The position numbers were made by a program, and so were the translations under genes. From an uncultured Erysipelotrichaceae bacterium (GTDB lineage Bacteria; Bacillota_I; Bacilli_A; Erysipelotrichales; Erysipelotrichaceae), in NCBI GenBank assembly GCA_964457525.1, contig CAYWGS010000074.1:1-7236 (forward strand): a stretch of 7,236 nucleotides of DNA, given 5' to 3'. The first letter of the stretch is position 1, and each line of letters starts with the position of its first letter. The notes beneath the pieces were generated by a model. That model made no database searches. It was not told where the DNA came from and saw nothing but the letters and a program-made list of their open reading frames with translations. Shown here piece after piece: positions 1 through 7,236 of this stretch.

Positions 1-3
1 ATT

Positions 4-9
4 TATAAT
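4..9 (+). promoter_or_regulatory. Candidate -10 box (TATAAT) for the permease/thioredoxin-like operon; the -35 lies beyond the left window edge
   Basis: Exact TATAAT at 4-9. The predicted TSS (about 16-17) falls inside the palindrome at 11-32. The -35 cannot be assessed, and chance TATAAT-like matches are common in AT-rich DNA. Confidence 0.35.
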
Positions 10-10
10 C

Positions 11-32
11 TATATAGATAATTATCTATATA
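11..32. promoter_or_regulatory. Perfect 22-bp palindrome, candidate repressor operator
   Basis: TATATAGATAA|TTATCTATATA is its own reverse complement with no mismatches. It sits between the TATAAT (4-9) and the AAGGAG RBS (32-37), the classic position for a dimeric repressor to block initiation. Operons of this permease/thioredoxin-like type are commonly ArsR/SmtB-regulated, but no regulator gene is visible in the window. Confidence 0.55.
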
Positions 33-43
33 AGGAGTCTCTT

Positions 44-1042
44 GTGTTTCAATGCTTTAATGATATCTTTCTTAAGATGACCTGGTTAAATGACTTAATT
101 GGTAACTTGGTTCAGTGGACTGGCTTAGATCTTCAAAGTCAAATAGGTCTATCTGTTCAGTTCTTTTTATACGATGTGATTAAAATCTTTATTTTACTTT
201 CTGTATTAATTTTTGTTGTTTCATTTATCCAGAGCTACTTCCCACCAGAGCGAACACGAAAGATACTTGGAACATTCAATGGAATTAGTGCAAATATTCT
301 AGGGGCATTACTTGGAACCCTTACACCGTTCTGTTCTTGTTCATCGATTCCTTTATTTATTGGTTTTACATCCGCAGGATTACCAATCGGAGTAACATTT
401 TCATTTTTGATTTCTTCACCGCTTGTTGATTTGGCATCCATTATTCTACTTGCGAGTATTTTTAATTGGAAGATAGCGTTGGCTTATGTTGTAGTGGGAC
501 TTATTCTCGCGGTTGTAAGCGGAACAGTTATTTCTAAGCTTCATATGGAAGATCAAGTAGCGGAGTTTATATTTAATAAAACAATAAATTCAGAACTTGA
601 AATTGAAGTATTAAGTTATAAGGAACGAATTGATTTCTCTGTAATAGCTGTTAAAGATATCATTCAAAAAGTTTGGATTTATGTATTAGTTGGAGTTGGT
701 ATTGGGGCACTCATTCATAATGTCATTCCAGAATCTTTTATTACTGCTTTATTAGGCTCTGATAAATGGTATTCTGTGCCACTTGCGACACTTGTTGGTG
801 TACCTATGTATGCGGATATCTTTGGAACTTTACCAATTGCGGAAGCGCTTGTTTCAAAGGGTGTTGGGATAGGGACTGCCCTATCATTTATGATGGCAGT
901 AACAGCATTATCCTTACCGAGCATCGTAATGTTAAAGAAGGTCATCAAGGATAAATTACTTATTGTGTTTGTGACGATTGTGGTTATAGGGATTATGATT
1001 ATTGGTGTGTTGTTTAATCAATTTGGTTGGATACTACTTTAA
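44..1042 (+). CDS. Multi-pass membrane permease, ArsP_1/DUF318 (COG0701-like) family
   Basis: 332-aa ORF that is hydrophobic throughout. GTG start at 44 lies 6 nt after AAGGAG (32-37). The family-typical TPFCSCSSIPLF motif carries a vicinal Cys pair (C97/C99, nt 332-340). The second half (VPMYADIFGTLPIAEAL) looks like the inverted-repeat half typical of this family. Substrate unknown. Confidence 0.85.
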   Translation: MFQCFNDIFLKMTWLNDLIGNLVQWTGLDLQSQIGLSVQFFLYDVIKIFILLSVLIFVVSFIQSYFPPERTRKILGTFNGISANILGALLGTLTPFCSCSSIPLFIGFTSAGLPIGVTFSFLISSPLVDLASIILLASIFNWKIALAYVVVGLILAVVSGTVISKLHMEDQVAEFIFNKTINSELEIEVLSYKERIDFSVIAVKDIIQKVWIYVLVGVGIGALIHNVIPESFITALLGSDKWYSVPLATLVGVPMYADIFGTLPIAEALVSKGVGIGTALSFMMAVTALSLPSIVMLKKVIKDKLLIVFVTIVVIGIMIIGVLFNQFGWILL

Positions 1043-1056
1043 AAAAGGAGAAAAAT

Positions 1057-1290
1057 ATGATTATAAAGGTATTAGGGTCTGGATGTAACAATTGTGTCAA
1101 ATTAGAAGAGAATGCTAAATTAGCAGTAAAAGATTTAGGCATAGAAGCAGAGTTTATTAAGGTAAAGGATATGGAAGGAATCGCATCGTATGGAATTATG
1201 CGAACTCCAGGTCTTGTGGTAGATGAAAAAGTTGTTTCATATGGGAAAGTTTTGAGTGTTGAGCAAATTAAAGAATTGCTATCGAAATAG
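1057..1290 (+). CDS. Small thioredoxin-fold protein (redox-active disulfide protein 2 / Thioredoxin_3-like), CxxC = CNNC
   Basis: 77 aa from ATG 1057, 6 nt after AAGGAG at 1045-1050. The ORF-track start at 1027 overlaps the permease and has no RBS. MIIKVLGSGCNNC...TPGLVVDEKVVSYGKV matches the pattern of this small family. CxxC lies at nt 1084-1095. It is a common partner gene of DUF318 permeases. Confidence 0.85.
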   Translation: MIIKVLGSGCNNCVKLEENAKLAVKDLGIEAEFIKVKDMEGIASYGIMRTPGLVVDEKVVSYGKVLSVEQIKELLSK

Positions 1291-1312
1291 AAAGGTGTAA
1301 TGCCTTTTTTTT
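1289..1312 (+). terminator. Weak candidate rho-independent terminator
   Basis: AGAAAGG(T) at 1289-1296 pairs with (G)CCTTTTT at 1302-1309 around a GTAAT loop, and a run of 8 T lies at 1305-1312. There are only two G:C pairs, so read-through into the next genes is plausible. Confidence 0.35.
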
Positions 1313-1327
1313 AGTTCAATTTGATTA

Positions 1328-1336
1328 TGTTAAAAT
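1328..1336 (+). promoter_or_regulatory. Candidate extended -10 promoter (TGtTAAAAT) for the central operon
   Basis: TGTTAAAAT at 1328-1336 is a TGn plus 5/6 match to TATAAT. The -35 is poor (TTTTTA at 1308-1313). The predicted TSS near 1343 would leave the GGGGA RBS and ATG 1366 intact, which favours 1366 as the start. Confidence 0.3.
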
Positions 1337-1365
1337 GGTTTCATAAACAAATCGTGGGGAAATAT

Positions 1366-1629
1366 ATGGAAGCATTATTAGATTTTTTTGTGCATGTGTT
1401 AGCAGAGACAACAATCGGCATTGCTCAATCAAATAAGAGTTCTAAAGCTCTAAGATTATTTGTTGTTGTTTTAATGATTATCGTAATGACTATCTCATTT
1501 GTTCTTGCCTATTTTTATAGAGGGAATATCATTTCAATGTGGACACTCTTATTATTTGGAATGATTATTGCAATTTTCTTAGTTAGATTATGCGTAGAAG
1601 TTATAAAGATTAAACAAAGGAAAGAATAA
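1366..1629 (+). CDS. Hypothetical small membrane protein, 2 predicted TM helices
   Basis: 87 aa from ATG 1366, with the GTGGGGA RBS at 1354-1360. Alternative starts are TTG 1321 and ATG 1327. Two hydrophobic segments (LRLFVVVLMIIVMTISFVLAYFY and MWTLLLFGMIIAIFLVRLCVEVI) are followed by a basic tail (KIKQRKE). I recognise no family. Confidence 0.5.
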   Translation: MEALLDFFVHVLAETTIGIAQSNKSSKALRLFVVVLMIIVMTISFVLAYFYRGNIISMWTLLLFGMIIAIFLVRLCVEVIKIKQRKE

Positions 1630-1646
1630 ATGGTTTGTACTAATAT

Positions 1647-2630
1647 ATGCCATTAGAAATTATTCGAGATGATATCAGTCGATTATCGACAGATGCGATT
1701 GTACATACAACTAATACAAATTTAATAAGAGGTCGAGGTTCAAGTGAGTCTATTTTTAAATCGGCTGGGTTCAAGTTGGAAGAAGCTCTTCAAGAAATAG
1801 GACATTGTGAAGTGGGGGAAGCTGTCATAACCCCTGGATTTAATCTTGCATCAAAATATATCATTCATACGGTTGGACCTGTTTGGATTGATGGTTTACA
1901 TAATGAATCCAAAGTATTAGAAGCGTGTTATAAGGGTTGTTTAGCACTTGCGCTAAAACTTGAGCTTAAATCCATCGCGTTTCCACTCATATCAGCAGGT
2001 ACATATGGATATCCAAAAGATGAAGCACTTCGAATGGCGACATCTACGATCCAGTCATTTTTACTAAAACATGAAATGAAGGTTTATCTTGTCGTGTTTG
2101 ATAAACAAGTCTATCAATTAAGTACACAGTTGTTTGATTCTGTTAAACAATACGTTGATGACCATTATGTGGAAATAAGGGGATCGAGACAAAGGATCAA
2201 TAGTGAGGAAACCAATTTCCGTACTTATAAGAAGATAAGCTATGAATCAAGTACCTCGATTGATGATATTTTATTAGAACTTGACTCATCCTTCTCAGAG
2301 ACCTTATTAAAACTCATTGATCAAAAAGACTTAAGAGATGTGGATGTATATAAACGGGCAAATATCTCAAAAGCCCATTTCTCAAAGATTCGGTCTCATA
2401 AAGATTATCGTCCAACCAAGACAACAGTCCTTGCATTTTGTATCTCGCTTAAACTTAATTTATCTGAAACACGAGACTTACTCGAAAAAGCAGGATTTAG
2501 CTTATCCAATAGTTCTAAAGGTGATATTATTGTCCGATATTTTATTGAAAACAAGAGATATGATATTTATGAAGTGAATGAAGTACTCTTTGAATATGAC
2601 CAACAACTTCTAGGAAGTAATACAATTTAA
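1647..2630 (+). CDS. Macro domain (ADP-ribose binding/hydrolase fold) fused to a C-terminal helix-turn-helix module
   Basis: aa 1-165 align by eye along their length with MacroD/YmdB-type macro domains: DAIVHTTN, GEAVITPGFNL..YIIHTVGPVW, LEACY, SIAFPLISAGTYGYP. aa ~215-320 (SFSETLLKLIDQKDLRDVDVYKRANISKAHFSKIRS...TVLAFCISLKLNLSETRDLLEKAGF) have an XRE-like HTH pattern. An in-frame TAA at 1641-1643 fixes the start at 1647. There is no canonical SD upstream. Confidence 0.9.
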   Translation: MPLEIIRDDISRLSTDAIVHTTNTNLIRGRGSSESIFKSAGFKLEEALQEIGHCEVGEAVITPGFNLASKYIIHTVGPVWIDGLHNESKVLEACYKGCLALALKLELKSIAFPLISAGTYGYPKDEALRMATSTIQSFLLKHEMKVYLVVFDKQVYQLSTQLFDSVKQYVDDHYVEIRGSRQRINSEETNFRTYKKISYESSTSIDDILLELDSSFSETLLKLIDQKDLRDVDVYKRANISKAHFSKIRSHKDYRPTKTTVLAFCISLKLNLSETRDLLEKAGFSLSNSSKGDIIVRYFIENKRYDIYEVNEVLFEYDQQLLGSNTI

Positions 2631-2663
2631 AGTTGCCTCACAGTTGACCTTATGATATTTCAT

Positions 2664-2696
2664 TTCCTCTATTCTATGAGTAGAAAGAAGAGGGAA
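2664..2696 (+). promoter_or_regulatory. Imperfect hairpin pairing an anti-SD-like CCTCT with the vWA gene RBS
   Basis: Inner stem 2672-2676 (TTCTA) pairs with 2681-2685 (TAGAA) around a TGAG loop. Outer stem 2666-2670 (CCTCT) pairs with 2689-2693 (AGAGG), with two further A:T pairs beyond a 1-nt bulge. The 3' arm contains the SD (GAGGG, 2690-2694) of the ATG at 2701. No U-tract follows, so it is not a terminator. Confidence 0.35.
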
Positions 2697-2700
2697 TTAT

Positions 2701-3339
2701 ATGAGTAAAATAGAATGTGTTTTTATCTTAGATCGTAGTGGTTCAATGGCTGGTTTAGAGAGTGATACGATCAATGGATTTAATGGATTATTGAATAAGC
2801 AACGTCAAGAAGAAGGAGAGGCAATCCTTACGACTGTTTTATTTGATCATCAAGTAGAATTATTACATGATCGTATTCCAGTGAAGTCCGTACAGAATAT
2901 TACCGAGAAAGAATATTATGTTAGAGGATCCACATCCTTATTGGATGCGATTGGATCTGCGATTGATAAGATTGGGAATGTACAGAAAATGACCAATGAA
3001 GCCGATCGTGCAGATAAAGTACTGGTTGTAATCACAACCGATGGGTTAGAGAATTCAAGTCGAAAGTATAGTTATAAGCGAATCAAACAAATGATTGAAC
3101 ATCAAAAACGCAAATATAACTGGGAGTTCATCTTTATGGGTGCGAATATGGATGCGATTGAAATGGCGAGTCAATTTGGGATTGGTGCAGATCGTGCAGT
3201 AAACTTCCATTCAGATAAAAAGGGGACTCAATTAAACTATGAATCGATGAGTAAAGTGGTAAGTCATCTTCGATCCAATCAAAACTTAGATGAAGACTGG
3301 AAGAAAGAGATTGAAGAAGATTATAAGAATAGACAATAA
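2701..3339 (+). CDS. Cytoplasmic von Willebrand factor A (vWA) domain protein with a complete MIDAS motif
   Basis: 212 aa with RBS GAGGG 6 nt upstream. MIDAS residues are D11-x-S13-x-S15 (DRSGS, nt 2731-2745), T78 (RGSTSLLDAIG) and D114 (VVITTDGLEN). There is no signal peptide or TM segment. The acidic/basic C-terminal tail (DEDWKKEIEEDYKNRQ) lies outside the fold. Confidence 0.9.
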   Translation: MSKIECVFILDRSGSMAGLESDTINGFNGLLNKQRQEEGEAILTTVLFDHQVELLHDRIPVKSVQNITEKEYYVRGSTSLLDAIGSAIDKIGNVQKMTNEADRADKVLVVITTDGLENSSRKYSYKRIKQMIEHQKRKYNWEFIFMGANMDAIEMASQFGIGADRAVNFHSDKKGTQLNYESMSKVVSHLRSNQNLDEDWKKEIEEDYKNRQ

Positions 3340-3390
3340 TTAGTGTTTATCGAAAAGAAATTTGGTAGGATGTATTTGCGAGGTATCGAT

Positions 3391-3942
3391 ATGAACTTAA
3401 CAATACGTCCACTGGATCCACAACATCCAGAACAATTACCAAATTTTTTTGATTCATTAGATTACAGTCATGCGCCACATTGGAGTGGGTGTTACTGTAG
3501 ATATTATCATAATGAAGATGGTGTACATAAAGATTCAAATATCAATCGTAAAGAAGCAATTGAATCAATTAGTAAATGTGAGATGAAAGGCTTTCTAGCA
3601 TTTGATCAAGATAAAGCCGTGGGTTGGTTAAACTCACAAGATATAAAACAATATAAACGCTTAAAATCAATATTTAACGACTATCGAGTCGATGAATATG
3701 CGTTAACCATCTGCTTTGTGATTCATCCAGATGTACGTAACCAAGGGGTTGCGACTCAAATGTTAGCGTATGCGATTGAATATTACAAATCATTAGGCTA
3801 CAAAGGGATGCTTGCACTACCACCTAAAGAGGTTGTTGAGATGCAAAAGACTTATCGTGGGCCTTTGAGTATGTATTTGAAGTTGGGGTATAAAGTTGTA
3901 TATGAAAAAGATGATTATTGTCTTGTTAGACTAGAATTCTAG
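3391..3942 (+). CDS. GNAT family N-acetyltransferase
   Basis: 183 aa from ATG 3391, with RBS GAGGT at 3380-3384. The GTG at 3343 in the ORF track has no RBS. The acetyl-CoA pyrophosphate-binding motif R-N-Q-G-V-A lies at nt 3736-3753 in VIHPDVRNQGVATQMLAYAIEY. The N-terminal segment HWSGCYCRYYH is His/Cys-rich. Acceptor substrate unknown. Confidence 0.85.
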   Translation: MNLTIRPLDPQHPEQLPNFFDSLDYSHAPHWSGCYCRYYHNEDGVHKDSNINRKEAIESISKCEMKGFLAFDQDKAVGWLNSQDIKQYKRLKSIFNDYRVDEYALTICFVIHPDVRNQGVATQMLAYAIEYYKSLGYKGMLALPPKEVVEMQKTYRGPLSMYLKLGYKVVYEKDDYCLVRLEF

Positions 3943-3949
3943 GGTAATT

Positions 3950-4762
3950 ATGATTATTAGTAAAAAAGAGAAACGAATTGTGTTAGTTGTTTTTATAAGT
4001 CTGTTTATTATATTTACATTCTATGATCTAAACTTCTCAAACTGGATCGTAAATCGCGAGAGTTTATTTGGTCAGTTTTTCTATGTTTTTGGGGAGTTAC
4101 CAGGAACGTTTATTGGATTAGTATCTTTATCAATCTTATCGGTCAGTGGTATAAACTCCAAGAAACAAACAATCAACTTCTATGGATTTGGATTACTAAG
4201 CTTTGTGATGAGTTTTGTGATTATGTATCGTACACTTAATTATCTCGATATTAATCTATTTCCATTAATTGGTTTGGGTGTATTTCCACCTATCATTTTA
4301 ATATACACGCTTAATCAATTAAGTGATGAGAAAAAGATATATCTAAGGAAGTATGCAGTTGTAGGTGTATTAACACTTATTGTTGGTGTGCTTGTGCCTA
4401 ATCTCGTAAAGATTGGTTGGGCTAGACCAAGATATCGTATTCTGGATACTACAGTACTTTTTAAAGCTTGGTACAATCCATCTGGATTCACTTTGAATGA
4501 TGATTGGAAGTCGTTCCCATCTGGACATTCAGCTGCGGCCGCAATATCACTCGTATACTTATACTTACCTCAATTGTTTGAACGATTAAGAGGTAAAGAG
4601 AAATGGATTAAACTGTTTGTTTGGGTATGGATTATTTTGGTGATGTTATCAAGAGTTGTGAGAGGTGATCATTACGTAACTGATACACTTGTAGGAGCAG
4701 GTTTTACATACTACGTTTTTGTTTATTTACATCAGAGGTTTATTGAGAAATCCAAAAAGTAA
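3950..4762 (+). CDS. PAP2 superfamily integral-membrane phosphatase
   Basis: 270 aa with about 6 hydrophobic helices. PAP2 signature motifs are C1-like KIGWARP (shorter spacing than canonical Kx6RP), C2 PSGH and C3 SRVVRGDHYVTD (SRx5Hx3D), all within nt 4409-4684. The start lies 7 nt after the GNAT stop, and its RBS (AGGGT) overlaps that stop. Confidence 0.85.
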   Translation: MIISKKEKRIVLVVFISLFIIFTFYDLNFSNWIVNRESLFGQFFYVFGELPGTFIGLVSLSILSVSGINSKKQTINFYGFGLLSFVMSFVIMYRTLNYLDINLFPLIGLGVFPPIILIYTLNQLSDEKKIYLRKYAVVGVLTLIVGVLVPNLVKIGWARPRYRILDTTVLFKAWYNPSGFTLNDDWKSFPSGHSAAAAISLVYLYLPQLFERLRGKEKWIKLFVWVWIILVMLSRVVRGDHYVTDTLVGAGFTYYVFVYLHQRFIEKSKK

Positions 4763-4772
4763 AGTAAATGTT

Positions 4773-4809
4773 AAATTCAATCTAAAAGACCTTTAGTATG
4801 AATTTTTTT
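4773..4809 (+). terminator. Candidate AT-rich rho-independent terminator closing the central operon
   Basis: AAATTCA (4773-4779) pairs with TGAATTT (4799-4805), and CTAAA (4782-4786) pairs with TTTAG (4792-4796) around an AGACC loop, with a 2x2 internal loop between the stems. A run of 7 T lies at 4803-4809. There are only 2 G:C pairs, so strength is uncertain. Confidence 0.45.
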
Positions 4810-4817
4810 GATAGAAT
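4809..4817 (+). promoter_or_regulatory. Candidate extended -10 promoter (TGaTAGAAT) immediately upstream of the 4824 ATG
   Basis: TGATAGAAT is a TGn plus 5/6 match to TATAAT. The hexamer ends 7 nt before A4824, so the predicted TSS coincides with the start codon. No good -35 is present. Confidence 0.3.
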
Positions 4818-4823
4818 AGGAAT

Positions 4824-5849
4824 ATGAAAATTATCAGAACCAAAGAGATAGATCGATTCTTTAATCGATGTCTACACAATATACAAAATGAAACTAAGAA
4901 TGAATTCTTAGGAATGCCAGTTACAAAACAAACCGAAAAAGAGATTCAAAGACGGATGAAGAAAGCTGGGTTTTTGGAGTACCAAGGTTCAGTTGATACT
5001 TGGCCTAGTTTGTATATATCATCTAAAGAATATATGAGTCGACCTTATCATAAAACAATTCAATTGGATAAGATTCAATCAAAAGAATTTGCTTATAAGA
5101 AAGAACTTGTTCAAGCAGATGAACTATTTAGTTTATCAAGTATACAATTTGATCCTGATCGTGAACTTAATGACTCCATGCGATTGGTTGCCTTAGATGA
5201 ACCGATGGAAGTCACAATCCTCTATCAGAACAATGAAGTTTGGATGTTAGATGTTCCATCAGAAGCAGAAACTATTGATCCTTATGCAAAGAAAGCACAT
5301 GGGAATATATTAACCTTTGGTTTAGGGATTGGATATTATCCATTTATGGCTATGTTAAATCCAAGTGTTGAGAAAATAACAGTAATTGAGAAATCAAAGC
5401 CAGTTATTGAATTGTTTAATCTATATTTAAGACCACAGTTTCCCAATCATATTACACTCGAAATTATTGAGGGTGATGCGTTTGATTACTTCAATGAGAA
5501 ATTTTTAAGTCAATATGATTCGGTATTTGTGGATATTTGGCAGTCTAATCAGGATGGCTTAGTACTGATTGAGAAACTTCTTGAGAATTATCTACCTGAT
5601 TTTAATCAAGTTGATTTTTGGATTGAAAGTTCTTGTTTCGAGATAATTCCAACTTTAATCTTCTTATATTTTGAAGCCTTAACGAGAAATAAACATGCGA
5701 AAGTTTATAATAAGGATGATCAGAGGATTATGCGAAAGATTGATACTTATTTTAGGAAAATAGATCAAACCATCGATGATGTAGATCAATTAAAAGATTA
5801 TATGTATAATCTAAAAATCCATCGAGAAATACTATCGATAAGACTATGA
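4824..5849 (+). CDS. Spermidine-synthase-like / class I SAM-dependent methyltransferase-fold protein with an uncharacterised ~135-aa N-terminal region
   Basis: 341 aa. Rossmann motifs occur in canonical order within nt 5307-5540: ILTFGLGIGY (GxGxG), ITVIEKS (acidic end of beta-2), IIEGDAFDYF and DSVFVDIW. The preceding VWMLDVPSEAETIDPYAKKAHG resembles in layout the LDG..Q..E.DE..YHE segment of aminopropyltransferases. The start is uncertain because the SD-like AGGAA sits too close to the ATG. Confidence 0.65.
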   Translation: MKIIRTKEIDRFFNRCLHNIQNETKNEFLGMPVTKQTEKEIQRRMKKAGFLEYQGSVDTWPSLYISSKEYMSRPYHKTIQLDKIQSKEFAYKKELVQADELFSLSSIQFDPDRELNDSMRLVALDEPMEVTILYQNNEVWMLDVPSEAETIDPYAKKAHGNILTFGLGIGYYPFMAMLNPSVEKITVIEKSKPVIELFNLYLRPQFPNHITLEIIEGDAFDYFNEKFLSQYDSVFVDIWQSNQDGLVLIEKLLENYLPDFNQVDFWIESSCFEIIPTLIFLYFEALTRNKHAKVYNKDDQRIMRKIDTYFRKIDQTIDDVDQLKDYMYNLKIHREILSIRL

Positions 5850-6142
5850 TCGAACACTATAATCATTTCCTACCACGATGGATGAAAGTAAGTGCAGTTA
5901 CACTGGGTAGACACGTTTTTTATGTGATGGATTCCAGTCGTGTAATAAGCCGATTACGTAAGCATGAGTATGCGCATGTTTTGCAGTATCAATCGAATGG
6001 ATTGATTAAGTTTCTTTATTTGTACTTCAAAGAATATCTTCATTATCGATTTAAAGGGTATAAGCATTACGATGCGTATTATCAAATCAGTTTTGAAGTT
6101 GAAGCAAGAAAACAAGAAACGCTTAACGAATCGATTGTATAG
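5846..6142 (+). CDS. 98-aa HExxH mini-metallopeptidase-like protein (DUF4157-like)
   Basis: The ATG at 5846 overlaps the upstream TGA (ATGA, 5846-5849), and there is no independent SD. SAVTLGRHVFY...ISRLRKHEYAHVLQYQ matches my recollection of the DUF4157 pattern A.T.G..I.F...LLAHELxHVxQ. HEYAH lies at nt 5963-5977. A downstream SFEVEAR offers a possible third-ligand Glu. Confidence 0.6.
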   Translation: MIEHYNHFLPRWMKVSAVTLGRHVFYVMDSSRVISRLRKHEYAHVLQYQSNGLIKFLYLYFKEYLHYRFKGYKHYDAYYQISFEVEARKQETLNESIV

Positions 6143-6210
6143 TGTTACTATTCTTAATGTGTTTATAAATAGAAATAGAATCATGGGTAACCATGTTAAA
6201 TAGGTGAAAT

Positions 6211-7230
6211 ATGTTAAAGAGATTTGCGATGTTAGGACTTAGTTTAATGATATTAGCTGGATGTGCTAAAGAAGTTGAGAACATTCCAAATGAAGAGAAT
6301 GTTCCTATTGAGGTCGATCCAAAAGAACTTATCGATTTAAGCTTAAAGCCGAATGAATCAGGCAAAATTATGATATTGATGTATCACAATATTGGAGAAG
6401 AGGAACAAACCTGGACTCGAACAGTGGATAACTTAAAAAAGGATTTAGAAACACTTTATGAGAAGGGTTATAGACCAATTAGTTTATCAGATTATGTGAC
6501 TGGTAATATCACAACAGAATTGGGATATACACCAGTTGTGTTAACCTTTGATGATGGAAATTTAAATAACTATCGATATCTTGAAGATGGTAGTTTAGAT
6601 CCAAATTGTGCTGTTGGCATTCTTGTGGAGTTTAATCGTACTCATCCGGATTTTCCGCTTGAGGCAACATTCTTTATTACGAGTTCCAATCCGTTTAAAC
6701 AATCTCAGTATGCAAAAGAGAAGGTTGAAGCACTCATTGAAATGGGCATGGATATTGGGAATCATTCAAAAGATCATATGAACTTTAAGGATGCGTCTAA
6801 AGATGACCTTGAGGAACAACTCGGTTATCAAGCACAGTATTTAGAAACATTTACTCCAGAAGGTTATCGAGTCAATACATTGGCTTTACCATATGGTTCA
6901 AGACCTAAAAATACCGATTTAGAAATATATTTACAAAAAGGGCAGTATGAAGAGTATTCGTATGAGAATGTTGCGATTCTAAATGTAGGTTGGTTTCCAG
7001 CTGTTTCACCTTATCATATTGACTTTAATCCACTCAGTTTGCCTAGAGTTCGTGCAAGTGAAATGAATGTGGATAATGTTGGTATGTATAATTACTTAAG
7101 TTATTTTGATAATCATCCTGAAGAAAAGTTTATCAGTGATGGCAATCCAGATATTATTACGATTCCTGAAGACTTGGTGGATAAGTTACCAATAAATGAA
7201 TCTAAAGAGTTGTATACTTATACTAGATAA
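6211..7230 (+). CDS. Lipoprotein, polysaccharide deacetylase (CE4 / NodB homology), PgaB/IcaB-like subtype
   Basis: 339 aa with RBS AGGTGA at 6202-6207. The signal peptide carries the lipobox LAGC (Cys18, nt 6262-6264). CE4 motifs are LTFDDG (aa 111-116), HSKDH (aa 185-189) and LPYG (aa 226-229). The N-terminal IMILMYHNIG...W..T...L..DL..L...GY..ISL segment is typical of the PgaB/IcaB-like branch. Confidence 0.85.
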   Translation: MLKRFAMLGLSLMILAGCAKEVENIPNEENVPIEVDPKELIDLSLKPNESGKIMILMYHNIGEEEQTWTRTVDNLKKDLETLYEKGYRPISLSDYVTGNITTELGYTPVVLTFDDGNLNNYRYLEDGSLDPNCAVGILVEFNRTHPDFPLEATFFITSSNPFKQSQYAKEKVEALIEMGMDIGNHSKDHMNFKDASKDDLEEQLGYQAQYLETFTPEGYRVNTLALPYGSRPKNTDLEIYLQKGQYEEYSYENVAILNVGWFPAVSPYHIDFNPLSLPRVRASEMNVDNVGMYNYLSYFDNHPEEKFISDGNPDIITIPEDLVDKLPINESKELYTYTR

Positions 7231-7236
7231 TTGATT

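Follow-up and report, generated by a model that had tools for sequence, protein, structure and literature searches.

A pair of neighbouring genes was investigated in a 7,236-nucleotide stretch of DNA from an uncultured Erysipelotrichaceae bacterium (GenBank assembly GCA_964457525.1, contig CAYWGS010000074.1, positions 1 to 7,236 of the forward strand), referred to here as the window. The product of the first gene, Macro-HTH, joins a macrodomain to a domain of the helix-turn-helix (HTH) type, and the second gene encodes a stand-alone von Willebrand factor A (vWA) protein. We observed that the two genes form a conserved pair, that a cis-element with a fixed geometry lies upstream of the vWA gene, and that this element co-varies with the predicted recognition helix of the HTH domain. 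Our favoured model, which we hold with slightly more belief than doubt, is that Macro-HTH acts as an ADP-ribose-responsive one-component transcription factor whose targets are the vWA gene and, in some loci, a gene for an ADP-ribosylglycohydrolase (ARH). Regulation of the vWA gene by Macro-HTH through this dyad is likely for the family at large and just on the probable side for the clade that includes the window.

The conservation of the pair was investigated in 80 loci drawn from a one-genome-per-species collection via alignment of the C-terminal (HTH) domain alone, and the window proteins were compared with these loci using tblastn. A macro domain lay upstream of the HTH in 76 of the 80 loci, and a vWA orthologue (42–62% identity, E 1e-46 to 1e-88) was found downstream on the same strand in 73. 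The two genes were directly adjacent in 56 loci, with a median gap of 92 nt. The hosts included many families of Clostridia, Bacilli (Psychrobacillus, Lysinibacillus), Erysipelotrichaceae, and Coriobacteriia, and a locus on a Selenomonas plasmid widens the range of the pair to Negativicutes. When the search was started from the vWA protein instead, the HTH was recovered in 39 of the 52 metagenome loci that could be tested and in 47 of 74 loci from IMG/VR. The pairing of Macro-HTH with vWA is not due to chance, and the neighbourhood test suggested in a reading made earlier from the window's letters alone (hereafter the sequence-only reading), which had proposed the two genes as a candidate module, gives a strongly positive result in this comparison across distant genera. 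Homologues of both proteins number in the thousands. For Macro-HTH, 8000 homologues were scored, and the best 120 were nearly all full length. The vWA protein is better conserved than its regulator, with at least 60% identity across classes.

All-against-all clustering of the open reading frames (ORFs) in the 80 loci identified only two recurrent extra genes, ARH (9 loci) and a generic ABC ATPase. The ARH gene (PF03747, E 1e-31 to 1e-41) was found in the same unit as the pair in 9 of the 80 genome loci and in 22 of 79 IMG/VR loci. It adjoins the vWA gene, usually immediately 3', and the stop and start codons often overlap. Two loci (L107 and L110) have the order Macro-HTH, ARH, vWA, and a third (L115) has the order vWA, PHP-like phosphatase, ARH, and a Macro-less protein with the same C-terminal domain. 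The presence of ARH in this unit in a subset of loci strengthens the link to ADP-ribose that had been suspected in the window. Other candidate components were rejected. The genes found between the members of the pair (an esterase, a YaaA-like protein, GNATs, an ArsC-like protein, glutamine synthetase, and Nmad3) are heterogeneous; Nmad3 (nucleotide-modification-associated domain 3, E 7e-51) occupies this place in two loci of the Oscillospiraceae type (L029 878–1684 and L075 6361–7167). The GNAT, PAP2, 341-aa, 98-aa, and small transmembrane ORFs and the deacetylase of the window were not conserved in the 80 loci, and the first five were found to be conserved merely within the window clade.

An inverted repeat, T-GTCGC-N7-GCGAC-C, was identified in the intergenic regions between Macro-HTH and vWA. 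The exact repeat GTCGC-N7-GCGAC was present in 65 copies in the 747 kb that make up the 80 loci, against a chance estimate of ~0.7. Of these copies, 63 lay within ~150 nt upstream of vWA; fifty of the 63 came just past the Macro-HTH stop codon, and 13 were positioned 68–154 nt upstream of vWA. The other two were elsewhere. Those 13 came from loci in which other genes, spanning up to 4.4 kb, part Macro-HTH from vWA. Because the repeat is found upstream of vWA even when other genes intervene, it belongs to the vWA gene. Exactly 20 nt past the repeat, 125 of the 153 distinct sequences compared had a −10-like hexamer (TATnnT), frequently with TG just before it; across the 153, the spacer between repeat and hexamer was unconserved and no −35 element was found. 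This fixed distance before the −10 hexamer places the centre of the dyad at approximately −42 relative to the predicted transcription start. The cassette of repeat and promoter was doubled in L107 and L110, with one copy before ARH and one before vWA; in L115, it was present before vWA and before the gene of the Macro-less regulator. We also scanned IMG/VR for further members of the regulon using AATGTCGC-N7-GCGACC, which gave 120 stretches. Eight of these were upstream of vWA and two others showed the −10 geometry, and the remaining matches look like chance in a very large collection, so no further regulon member was accepted.

The repeat co-varied with the predicted recognition helix. Helices of the form xDR[KR]L were paired with the half-site GCGAC in 120 of 120 cases, and of 17 helices of the form xS/T-x-Q/A-H/L ("S-type"), 16 had TTGAC or TTTAC as their half-site. 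A naive Fisher test, with kinship ignored, gave p = 6e-20. The S-type helix sequences fell into six groups in a neighbour-joining tree. The proposal that the HTH couples the macrodomain to transcription, which had been made as a working hypothesis from the window, gains support from this co-varying operator and promoter cassette upstream of vWA.

A complement of at least 6 nt to the vWA Shine-Dalgarno sequence (an anti-Shine-Dalgarno) was found between the repeat and the predicted start in 38% of loci (shuffled mean, 2.3 nt). No such complement was found in the transcribed vWA leader. Since the anti-Shine-Dalgarno sits upstream of the start site, it would silence the translation of read-through transcripts.

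The window, with a G+C content of 33%, contains ten ORFs, all co-directional. The features that concern the pair are as follows.

1647–2630, forward strand: Macro-HTH gene, encoding a predicted one-component regulator of 327 aa (ORF list; Pfam Macro; AlphaFold2 model, pLDDT 84).
1647–2165, forward strand: MacroD-type macrodomain, residues 1–173, with ADP-ribose-binding features retained and H20/S33/F37 at the N/D/H catalytic positions (Foldseek, alignment).
2181–2255, forward strand: interdomain linker, disordered, residues 179–203 (AlphaFold2 pLDDT <50; alignment gappy and variable).
2259–2627, forward strand: C-terminal helical domain, residues 205–327, a Cro/C1-like five-helix HTH with two extra helices (sub-threshold HTH matches, AlphaFold2).
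2364–2378, forward strand: start of the predicted recognition helix, I240-S-K-A-H244, an S-type variant of the family consensus I-D-R-K-L (helix class against half-site).
2631–2649, forward strand: operator-equivalent site AGTTGCCTCACAGTTGACC, with the promoter-proximal half-site AGTTGACC at 2642–2649 (alignment with L246, L248, L249, and canonical loci).
2670–2675, forward strand: −10-like hexamer TATTCT, 20 nt past the operator-equivalent site and without a −35 (sequence, family spacing).
2690–2694, forward strand: Shine-Dalgarno GAGGG of the vWA gene (sequence).
2701–3339, forward strand: vWA gene, encoding a stand-alone protein of 212 aa with a complete metal ion-dependent adhesion site (MIDAS), the predicted regulated output (AlphaFold2, Foldseek, invariant columns).

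The layout read from the letters was confirmed, with two genes on the same strand and 70 nt between the Macro-HTH stop codon and the vWA ATG. The window belongs to an S-type clade, with the helix ISKAH, and AGTTGCCTCACAGTTGACC fills the position of the family repeat T-GTCGC-N7-GCGAC-C. Only the proximal half-site AGTTGACC was conserved among the clade relatives L246, L248, and L249, and it occurs once in the window. The 20-nt spacing to TATTCT is retained; a generic −35/−10 promoter scan found nothing at 2670–2675. A partial anti-Shine-Dalgarno, CCTCT (2666–2670), is situated upstream of where transcription is predicted to start. Further copies of the window locus were found in metagenomes, probably of Erysipelotrichales, and in its clade the pair sits at a stable chromosomal site 3' of an ArsR/ArsP/thioredoxin cluster. 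No defence genes were found near the locus. The ten window ORFs gave no match to an ADP-ribosyltransferase, sirtuin, DarT, ARH, or phosphatase, which agrees with the earlier statement that a writer of ADP-ribose marks is missing from the window. Judged by its sequence, the window copy is a somewhat degenerate member of the family.

The macrodomain was identified with confidence. It matched Pfam PF01661 over residues 19–131 (E 2.4e-36; 124.7 bits vs. a gathering cutoff of 22), and its matches among PDB sequences include the PARP14 macrodomain, DR_2288, and YmdB (E 1e-29 to 1e-33). An AlphaFold2 model of Macro-HTH, built on 34 homologues, showed a macro fold that matched YmdB and MacroD2 by Foldseek (E 1e-14 to 1e-15), with a TMt of 0.86–0.89 against YmdB. 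The C-terminal domain comprises eight confidently modelled helices (residues 205–316), which in the HTH region span 216–226, 231–237, 242–250, 258–267, and 272–281, with two more besides. Its match to HTH_26 is weak (E 1.7e-3 for the full protein; E 2.8e-4 and 21.5 bits vs. a cutoff of 22 for the domain alone). Among 15 family members, HTH_26, HTH_19, and HTH_3 matched 9, 7, and 6, respectively, at E 1e-3 to 1e-4, and a profile search of PDB sequences with the domain returned nothing significant. The fusion of a macro fold and a putative Cro/C1-like HTH in one polypeptide, as first read, was upheld. The HTH domain family comprises 7894 representative clusters at 50% identity, and the domain is C-terminal in almost all of the best 150. 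Other architectures were considered and rejected, as the shorter proteins checked were mostly fragments or degraded Macro fusions. Two further similarities were noted. Residues 140–260, in the linker and HTH region, gave a marginal PADLOC match to CARF_STK_AAA (E 9e-5), and residues 195–320 matched the last 125 of the 626 positions of phrog_4031, a PHROG family without an assigned function (E 9e-12); from the latter match, the C-terminal domain may be reused in larger phage proteins.

The vWA protein matched only VWA_CoxE in Pfam (E 1.3e-3; 18.6 bits vs. a gathering cutoff of 26.4), and a profile search of PDB sequences gave no significant match. Its AlphaFold2 model (pLDDT 91, pTM 0.90) had 373 Foldseek matches in the PDB at E ≤ 1e-3, and the best 50 were nearly all vWA or integrin I domains. 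The five MIDAS residues (DxSxS...T...D; D11, S13, S15, T78, and D114), which had been picked out from the sequence, proved invariant across 36 homologues. Because Pfam is under threshold, membership in the vWA family is assigned from the fold model and the MIDAS motif. The protein opens straight into strand beta-1 and carries neither a signal peptide nor a transmembrane segment, so a cytoplasmic location is a reasonable inference. It also matched the phrog_7371 hidden Markov model with E 2.9e-55.

The residues of the macrodomain pocket were compared across the family. D16, G29, G31, G118, and the FPLIS motif are invariant across the family, including the window protein; from knowledge of macrodomain structures, we take D16 to be the adenine-contacting Asp and the glycines to be the phosphate loops. 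The positions equivalent to MacroD1 N174/D184/H188, canonically N/D/H, are occupied in the window by H20, S33, and F37. Because of these replacements, the window protein is a macrodomain and would not be a canonical MacroD hydrolase. Among the genome loci, these positions read N-D-H in 31 and N-C-F in 32. As the binding residues are invariant and the catalytic ones are split, ligand binding rather than hydrolysis appears to be the common denominator. Macro-HTH in the window clade is probably a pure binder acting on a modified site, and about half of the family could probably also hydrolyze the ligand. We consider it fairly probable that the ligand is of the ADP-ribose type. The switching between N-D-H, N-C-F, and H-S-F provides a natural experiment on binder versus hydrolase sensors. 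A YIDDxY segment (Y169 to Y174) at the end of the macrodomain is also invariant; as speculation, it is a candidate MIDAS ligand.

In the model that we favour, the macrodomain would serve as the sensor of ADP-ribose, of an ADP-ribosylated molecule, or of a related ligand. The Cro/C1-like HTH, presumably dimeric, would bind the inverted repeat centred ~42 bp upstream of a transcription start that is served by a −35-less, often extended −10 promoter directly before vWA. The state of the ligand would govern transcription of vWA, and ARH, where present, would fall under the same control. In class II activation, for example by CRP at galP1 or lambda cI at PRM, the geometry is the one seen here: a dyad at approximately −42 on an extended −10 promoter that lacks a −35. 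This likeness gives a slight lean toward activation over repression. In the many loci that have the anti-Shine-Dalgarno, it would leave read-through transcripts poorly translated, which suggests that the default state of vWA is tightly off. The vWA protein would then be the output, with its MIDAS most likely engaging an acidic residue on some target or partner protein; the candidates are host proteins that bear ADP-ribose, a role suggested for related systems, and the regulator. We infer the ligand, the sign of regulation, and all that concerns the action of vWA, and any specific function given to the vWA protein is at best tentative. In a bolder version, which we regard as rather unlikely, Macro-HTH would use its macrodomain to read ADP-ribosylation, possibly on macromolecules and not as free ADP-ribose, and would be the first transcription factor of bacteria to do so. 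It would activate a dedicated, tightly insulated cassette for a highly conserved MIDAS-vWA effector with or without ARH, as a widespread Bacillota "ADP-ribosylation stress response" against ADP-ribosyltransferases of phages or toxins, and phages would have captured the vWA protein (phrog_7371) for their own purposes.

The vWA family also occurs outside of the pair. It is present as a solitary gene, phrog_7371, in 217 cultured phage genomes (BFVD TM-scores 0.82–0.84). Cultured phages with a 33–40% identical vWA protein include the Streptomyces Jay2Jay group, Microbacterium and Pseudomonas phages, and the jumbo phages XacN1 and RsoM2USA. The Jay2Jay gene adjoins terminase/HNH, and the BFVD matches include a protein of 472 aa that carries a restriction-enzyme annotation. 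In IMG/VR, a vWA clade with 46–51% identity (L141–L165) was found without Macro-HTH among many small co-directional ORFs, on phage-like contigs that are mostly tens of kb and up to ~150 kb in length. Plasmid pSB029A of Fusobacterium animalis (L250 4896–5633) encodes a 58% identical vWA protein with a signal-peptide-like N-terminal extension (MNKFLIALFIAIFSFSFS...), with neither Macro-HTH nor the inverted repeat present, and this appears to be an exported version of the family. Because vWA occurs alone in phages and Fusobacterium, its function would be independent of Macro-HTH.

The pair itself was found on mobilizable elements with MobC, a relaxase, and HsdM in many IMG/VR loci. In six of them (L088, L093, L094, L096, L099, and L102, at ~2400–5900), the members of the pair are parted by a Y-family polymerase of 502 aa that resembles UmuC and by a 140-aa YolD-like protein, sometimes with an extra 510-aa protein of no known identity, and MobC, the relaxase, and type I HsdM follow. 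From this gene content, these six "viral" contigs look like integrative mobilizable elements. On plasmid pSRC2 of Selenomonas ruminantium (L251 932–9879), the pair is set amid an endonuclease/exonuclease/phosphatase-family gene, an AAA ATPase, a Nudix (d)NTP pyrophosphohydrolase, a nucleoside 2-deoxyribosyltransferase, and a DUF262 protein, and the region looks like a nucleotide-centred island.

Several observations weigh against the favoured model. The case for it is comparative throughout. In the window, the left half-site is degenerate, and the canonical repeat was not found with up to 2 mismatches. The HTH of Macro-HTH scores under the Pfam gathering threshold. vWA was absent from 7 of the 80 loci, one of which (L051) was ended by a contig edge, and the solitary phage vWA genes and the signal-peptide-bearing Fusobacterium gene have neither Macro-HTH nor the operator. 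The association between helix and operator was tested naively with respect to phylogeny and may reflect few events. Autoregulation does not seem to be general, because k-mer and palindrome enrichment in 69 regions upstream of the Macro-HTH gene yielded no shared motif other than −10-like AT-rich words. Finally, the inverted repeat could act as an RNA hairpin in read-through transcripts, and the symmetric changes in its half-sites are compatible with both an operator and an RNA element.

Among the rival explanations, the one that survives best is a conflict system, serving in defence against phages or toxins or as anti-defence cargo on mobile elements. The macrodomain would sense the ADP-ribosyltransferase activity of an invader or NADase-derived ADP-ribose, the vWA protein would be an effector or chaperone that neutralizes damage or triggers dormancy, and ARH would remove the marks. 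This reading is compatible with the regulatory model and adds a specific biological role, and we regard it as possible at a tentative level. It follows the logic of the predicted ADP-ribosylglycohydrolase (ARG)-centric anti-ADP-ribosylation systems, in which a sensor transcription factor, ARG, and a vWA chaperone occur with no ADP-ribosyltransferase nearby (Burroughs, Aravind et al., Viruses 2022, PMC9503650, section 3.8). The L115 variant (vWA, PHP-like phosphatase, ARH, and HTH) agrees with it, as do the mobilizable elements (MobC, relaxase, HsdM, UmuC/YolD), the Nudix, nucleoside deoxyribosyltransferase, and DUF262 genes that flank the pair on the Selenomonas plasmid, Nmad3 between the pair in L029 and L075, the vWA homologues that many phages carry (one is fused to a protein resembling a restriction enzyme), and the variable catalytic residues of the sensor. 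However, the vWA protein is unusually conserved across classes, which is the opposite of fast-evolving conflict effectors, and the 80 genome loci are flanked by a mixed set of housekeeping genes, in which neither defence nor mobile-element genes recur. The PADLOC search that had been suggested for the pair gave, with PADLOC-DB v2, no match for vWA and only the marginal CARF-related match to the Macro-HTH linker. Given these ordinary flanks, the stable syntenic chromosomal site in the window clade, and the PADLOC result, a role in defence or anti-defence is possible yet unproven.

An improbable alternative is a housekeeping role in NAD and ADP-ribose homeostasis. Here, Macro-HTH would sense free ADP-ribose or O-acetyl-ADP-ribose from sirtuin and NAD turnover, much as NrtR, and would tune a vWA protein with an ordinary role such as metal handling, assembly, or chaperoning. 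The broad, vertical-looking distribution in Bacillota, the stable synteny in the window clade, and the very strong purifying selection on vWA would fit such a role, and NrtR, a Nudix-HTH ADP-ribose-binding regulator, is a precedent (cited in PMC9503650). Against it, genes for NAD salvage, sirtuins, or Nudix proteins do not accompany the pair in the 80 genome loci, the only specific gene that recurs beside it there, ARH, is of the protein-ADP-ribose hydrolase type, and mobilizable elements carry the pair as phages carry vWA.

A third explanation, very unlikely in our view, takes the repeat as an RNA element (a hairpin, processing site, or attenuator) in a bicistronic transcript, with the C-terminal domain serving, for example, to tether a hydrolase to DNA or RNA. 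The repeat is able to form a 5-bp stem, G-U-compatible pairs are kept both in the variant of the window's clade (GUUGC/UUGAC) and in those of L036, L052, and L070 (GUCGU/GCGAC), and many loci contain a second hairpin that sequesters the Shine-Dalgarno. However, the stem is only 5 bp, with a variable loop and no U-tract, and a search of Rfam with the window and five loci found only tRNAs and left the intergenic region unmatched. Because the −10 box sits at a fixed distance of 20 nt past the repeat, a transcript made from this promoter would not include the repeat. The repeat also co-varies with residues of the HTH recognition helix and stays upstream of vWA despite the insertion of unrelated genes, some on the opposite strand, and both observations favour an operator.

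A toxin–antitoxin-like pair (vWA as toxic effector and Macro-HTH as antitoxin and repressor, cf. Xre-RES or DarTG) can be set aside as highly improbable: macro domains serve as antitoxins in DarTG, and the gene order of an HTH protein followed by a small partner and the tight control of vWA translation resemble toxin–antitoxin operons, but the operator lies between the genes and not 5' of the first, where no autoregulatory site was found, the vWA protein has no enzymatic toxin fold and occurs alone in phages, Fusobacterium, and many metagenome loci, and there was no match to a toxin–antitoxin family nor a PADLOC match for vWA.

Other features of the window were also noted. Upstream of the pair, a gene for an ArsP-family permease (44–1042) overlaps by 16 nt a Thioredoxin_3/redox-active disulfide protein 2 gene (1027–1290), past which lies a weak stem with a T-run at ~1291–1312. 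This cluster, seen also at L001 2207–3834, is syntenic throughout the window clade, and in relatives it is closely preceded by two more genes, one of the ArsR type (HTH_5) and one of DUF2703. A small ORF at 1321–1629 (100–102 aa), for which hydrophobic helices are predicted, stops 17 nt short of the Macro-HTH start. Its only other occurrences were near-identical copies from metagenomes, and the clade relatives L246, L248, and L249 have different genes in its place; it probably stands outside of the module. Downstream, ORFs of 341 aa and 98 aa (4824–6142) overlap by 4 nt (ATGA), and this arrangement is conserved in L001 and L249. The former matched no Pfam family, a PHROG methyltransferase (E 4e-14), and, weakly, a spermidine-synthase-like protein. 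The latter contains a zincin-like HEYAH motif, with weak matches to eCIS_core/DUF4157 and a match to a PHROG protease (E 8e-7). The two are a possible methyltransferase and small-metallopeptidase pair.

A literature search found no description of a Macro-HTH factor or of a Macro/vWA system, and the module was compared with the known systems that it most resembles. The sensing of ADP-ribosylation by bacteria is poorly understood, and the ADP-ribosyltransferases that they face come from phages, toxins, and their own defence systems. Like DarTG and the SirTM-Macro pair, the module links a macrodomain genetically to a partner within a setting of ADP-ribose biology. However, neither the window nor the related loci contain a DarT or sirtuin writer gene, and neither an ADP-ribosyltransferase nor a sirtuin was a recurrent neighbour in the 80 loci; the partner is a vWA protein rather than an enzyme, and the PDB matches listed for the Macro region are of the MacroD, YmdB, and macroH2A types. 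The module shares with TerY-P and ArnA-ArnB a small intracellular MIDAS vWA protein of the YegL/TerY type (the JGI annotation is "YegL", and ArnB is among the structural matches), but it lacks a Ser/Thr kinase, a PP2C phosphatase, and an FHA partner, and its regulation seems to be transcriptional, via Macro-HTH. The phage vWA proteins of phrog_7371 (e.g., Streptomyces phage Jay2Jay gp102) belong to the same vWA subfamily; these copies are solitary, without a Macro-HTH gene or operator. If the favoured model is true, it would offer a functional handle on this very conserved, uncharacterized family that phages share.

With MacroD and YmdB, Macro-HTH shares the fold and the ADP-ribose-binding loops, and about half of its family keeps N/D/H at the catalytic positions. 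Those proteins are single-domain enzymes without a dedicated vWA partner, whereas Macro-HTH is fused to an HTH and has H/S/F at these positions in the window. In NrtR, a Nudix fold is joined to a winged helix, and the protein represses genes of NAD biosynthesis and salvage. The two are alike as one-component regulators in which an enzyme-derived ADP-ribose-binding domain controls a DNA-binding domain, and they differ in that no NAD biosynthesis or salvage genes lie near the module. If the model holds, Macro-HTH would be the first macrodomain-based bacterial transcription factor.

The closest likeness is to the ARG-centric systems, which are themselves a computational prediction. Around ARG as the core gene, they bring together a phosphatase, an HTH regulator with a Nudix or WYL sensor, a peptide-binding chaperone (vWA or another), and in some cases Macro, and no writer enzyme lies nearby (PMC9503650). 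Both combine a predicted one-component sensor-HTH, ADP-ribose-processing enzymes, and a stand-alone vWA "chaperone" without an ADP-ribosyltransferase nearby, and in both, sensing of ADP-ribose would induce the operon. Of their other parts, ARH/ARG is found in a subset of the relatives of the module and a phosphatase in one variant (L115). The claim of the sequence-only reading that its three elements occur together in no named system was therefore too strong, given this earlier prediction of a sensor-HTH with a vWA chaperone and Macro as an occasional accessory; of its functional hypothesis, the coupling to transcription and the link to ADP-ribose gain support, and the capture of a protein partner through MIDAS is conjecture. 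The sensor of the module is a macrodomain and not Nudix or WYL, and its core is Macro-HTH with vWA, with ARG being optional and absent in the window. There is no phosphatase in the window, and a PHP-like gene was present in L115 only. The ARG-centric systems were described in actinobacteria, planctomycetes, and proteobacteria, whereas the module occurs in Bacillota and Coriobacteriia, in hundreds of gut and environmental Bacillota species. The authors of PMC9503650 assumed negative regulators, whereas the geometry of the module suggests activation. The module also now has a defined operator, and if the model is true, this would make it a testable sensing circuit with three defined parts, namely the Macro sensor, a DNA site at approximately −42, and the outputs vWA and ARH.

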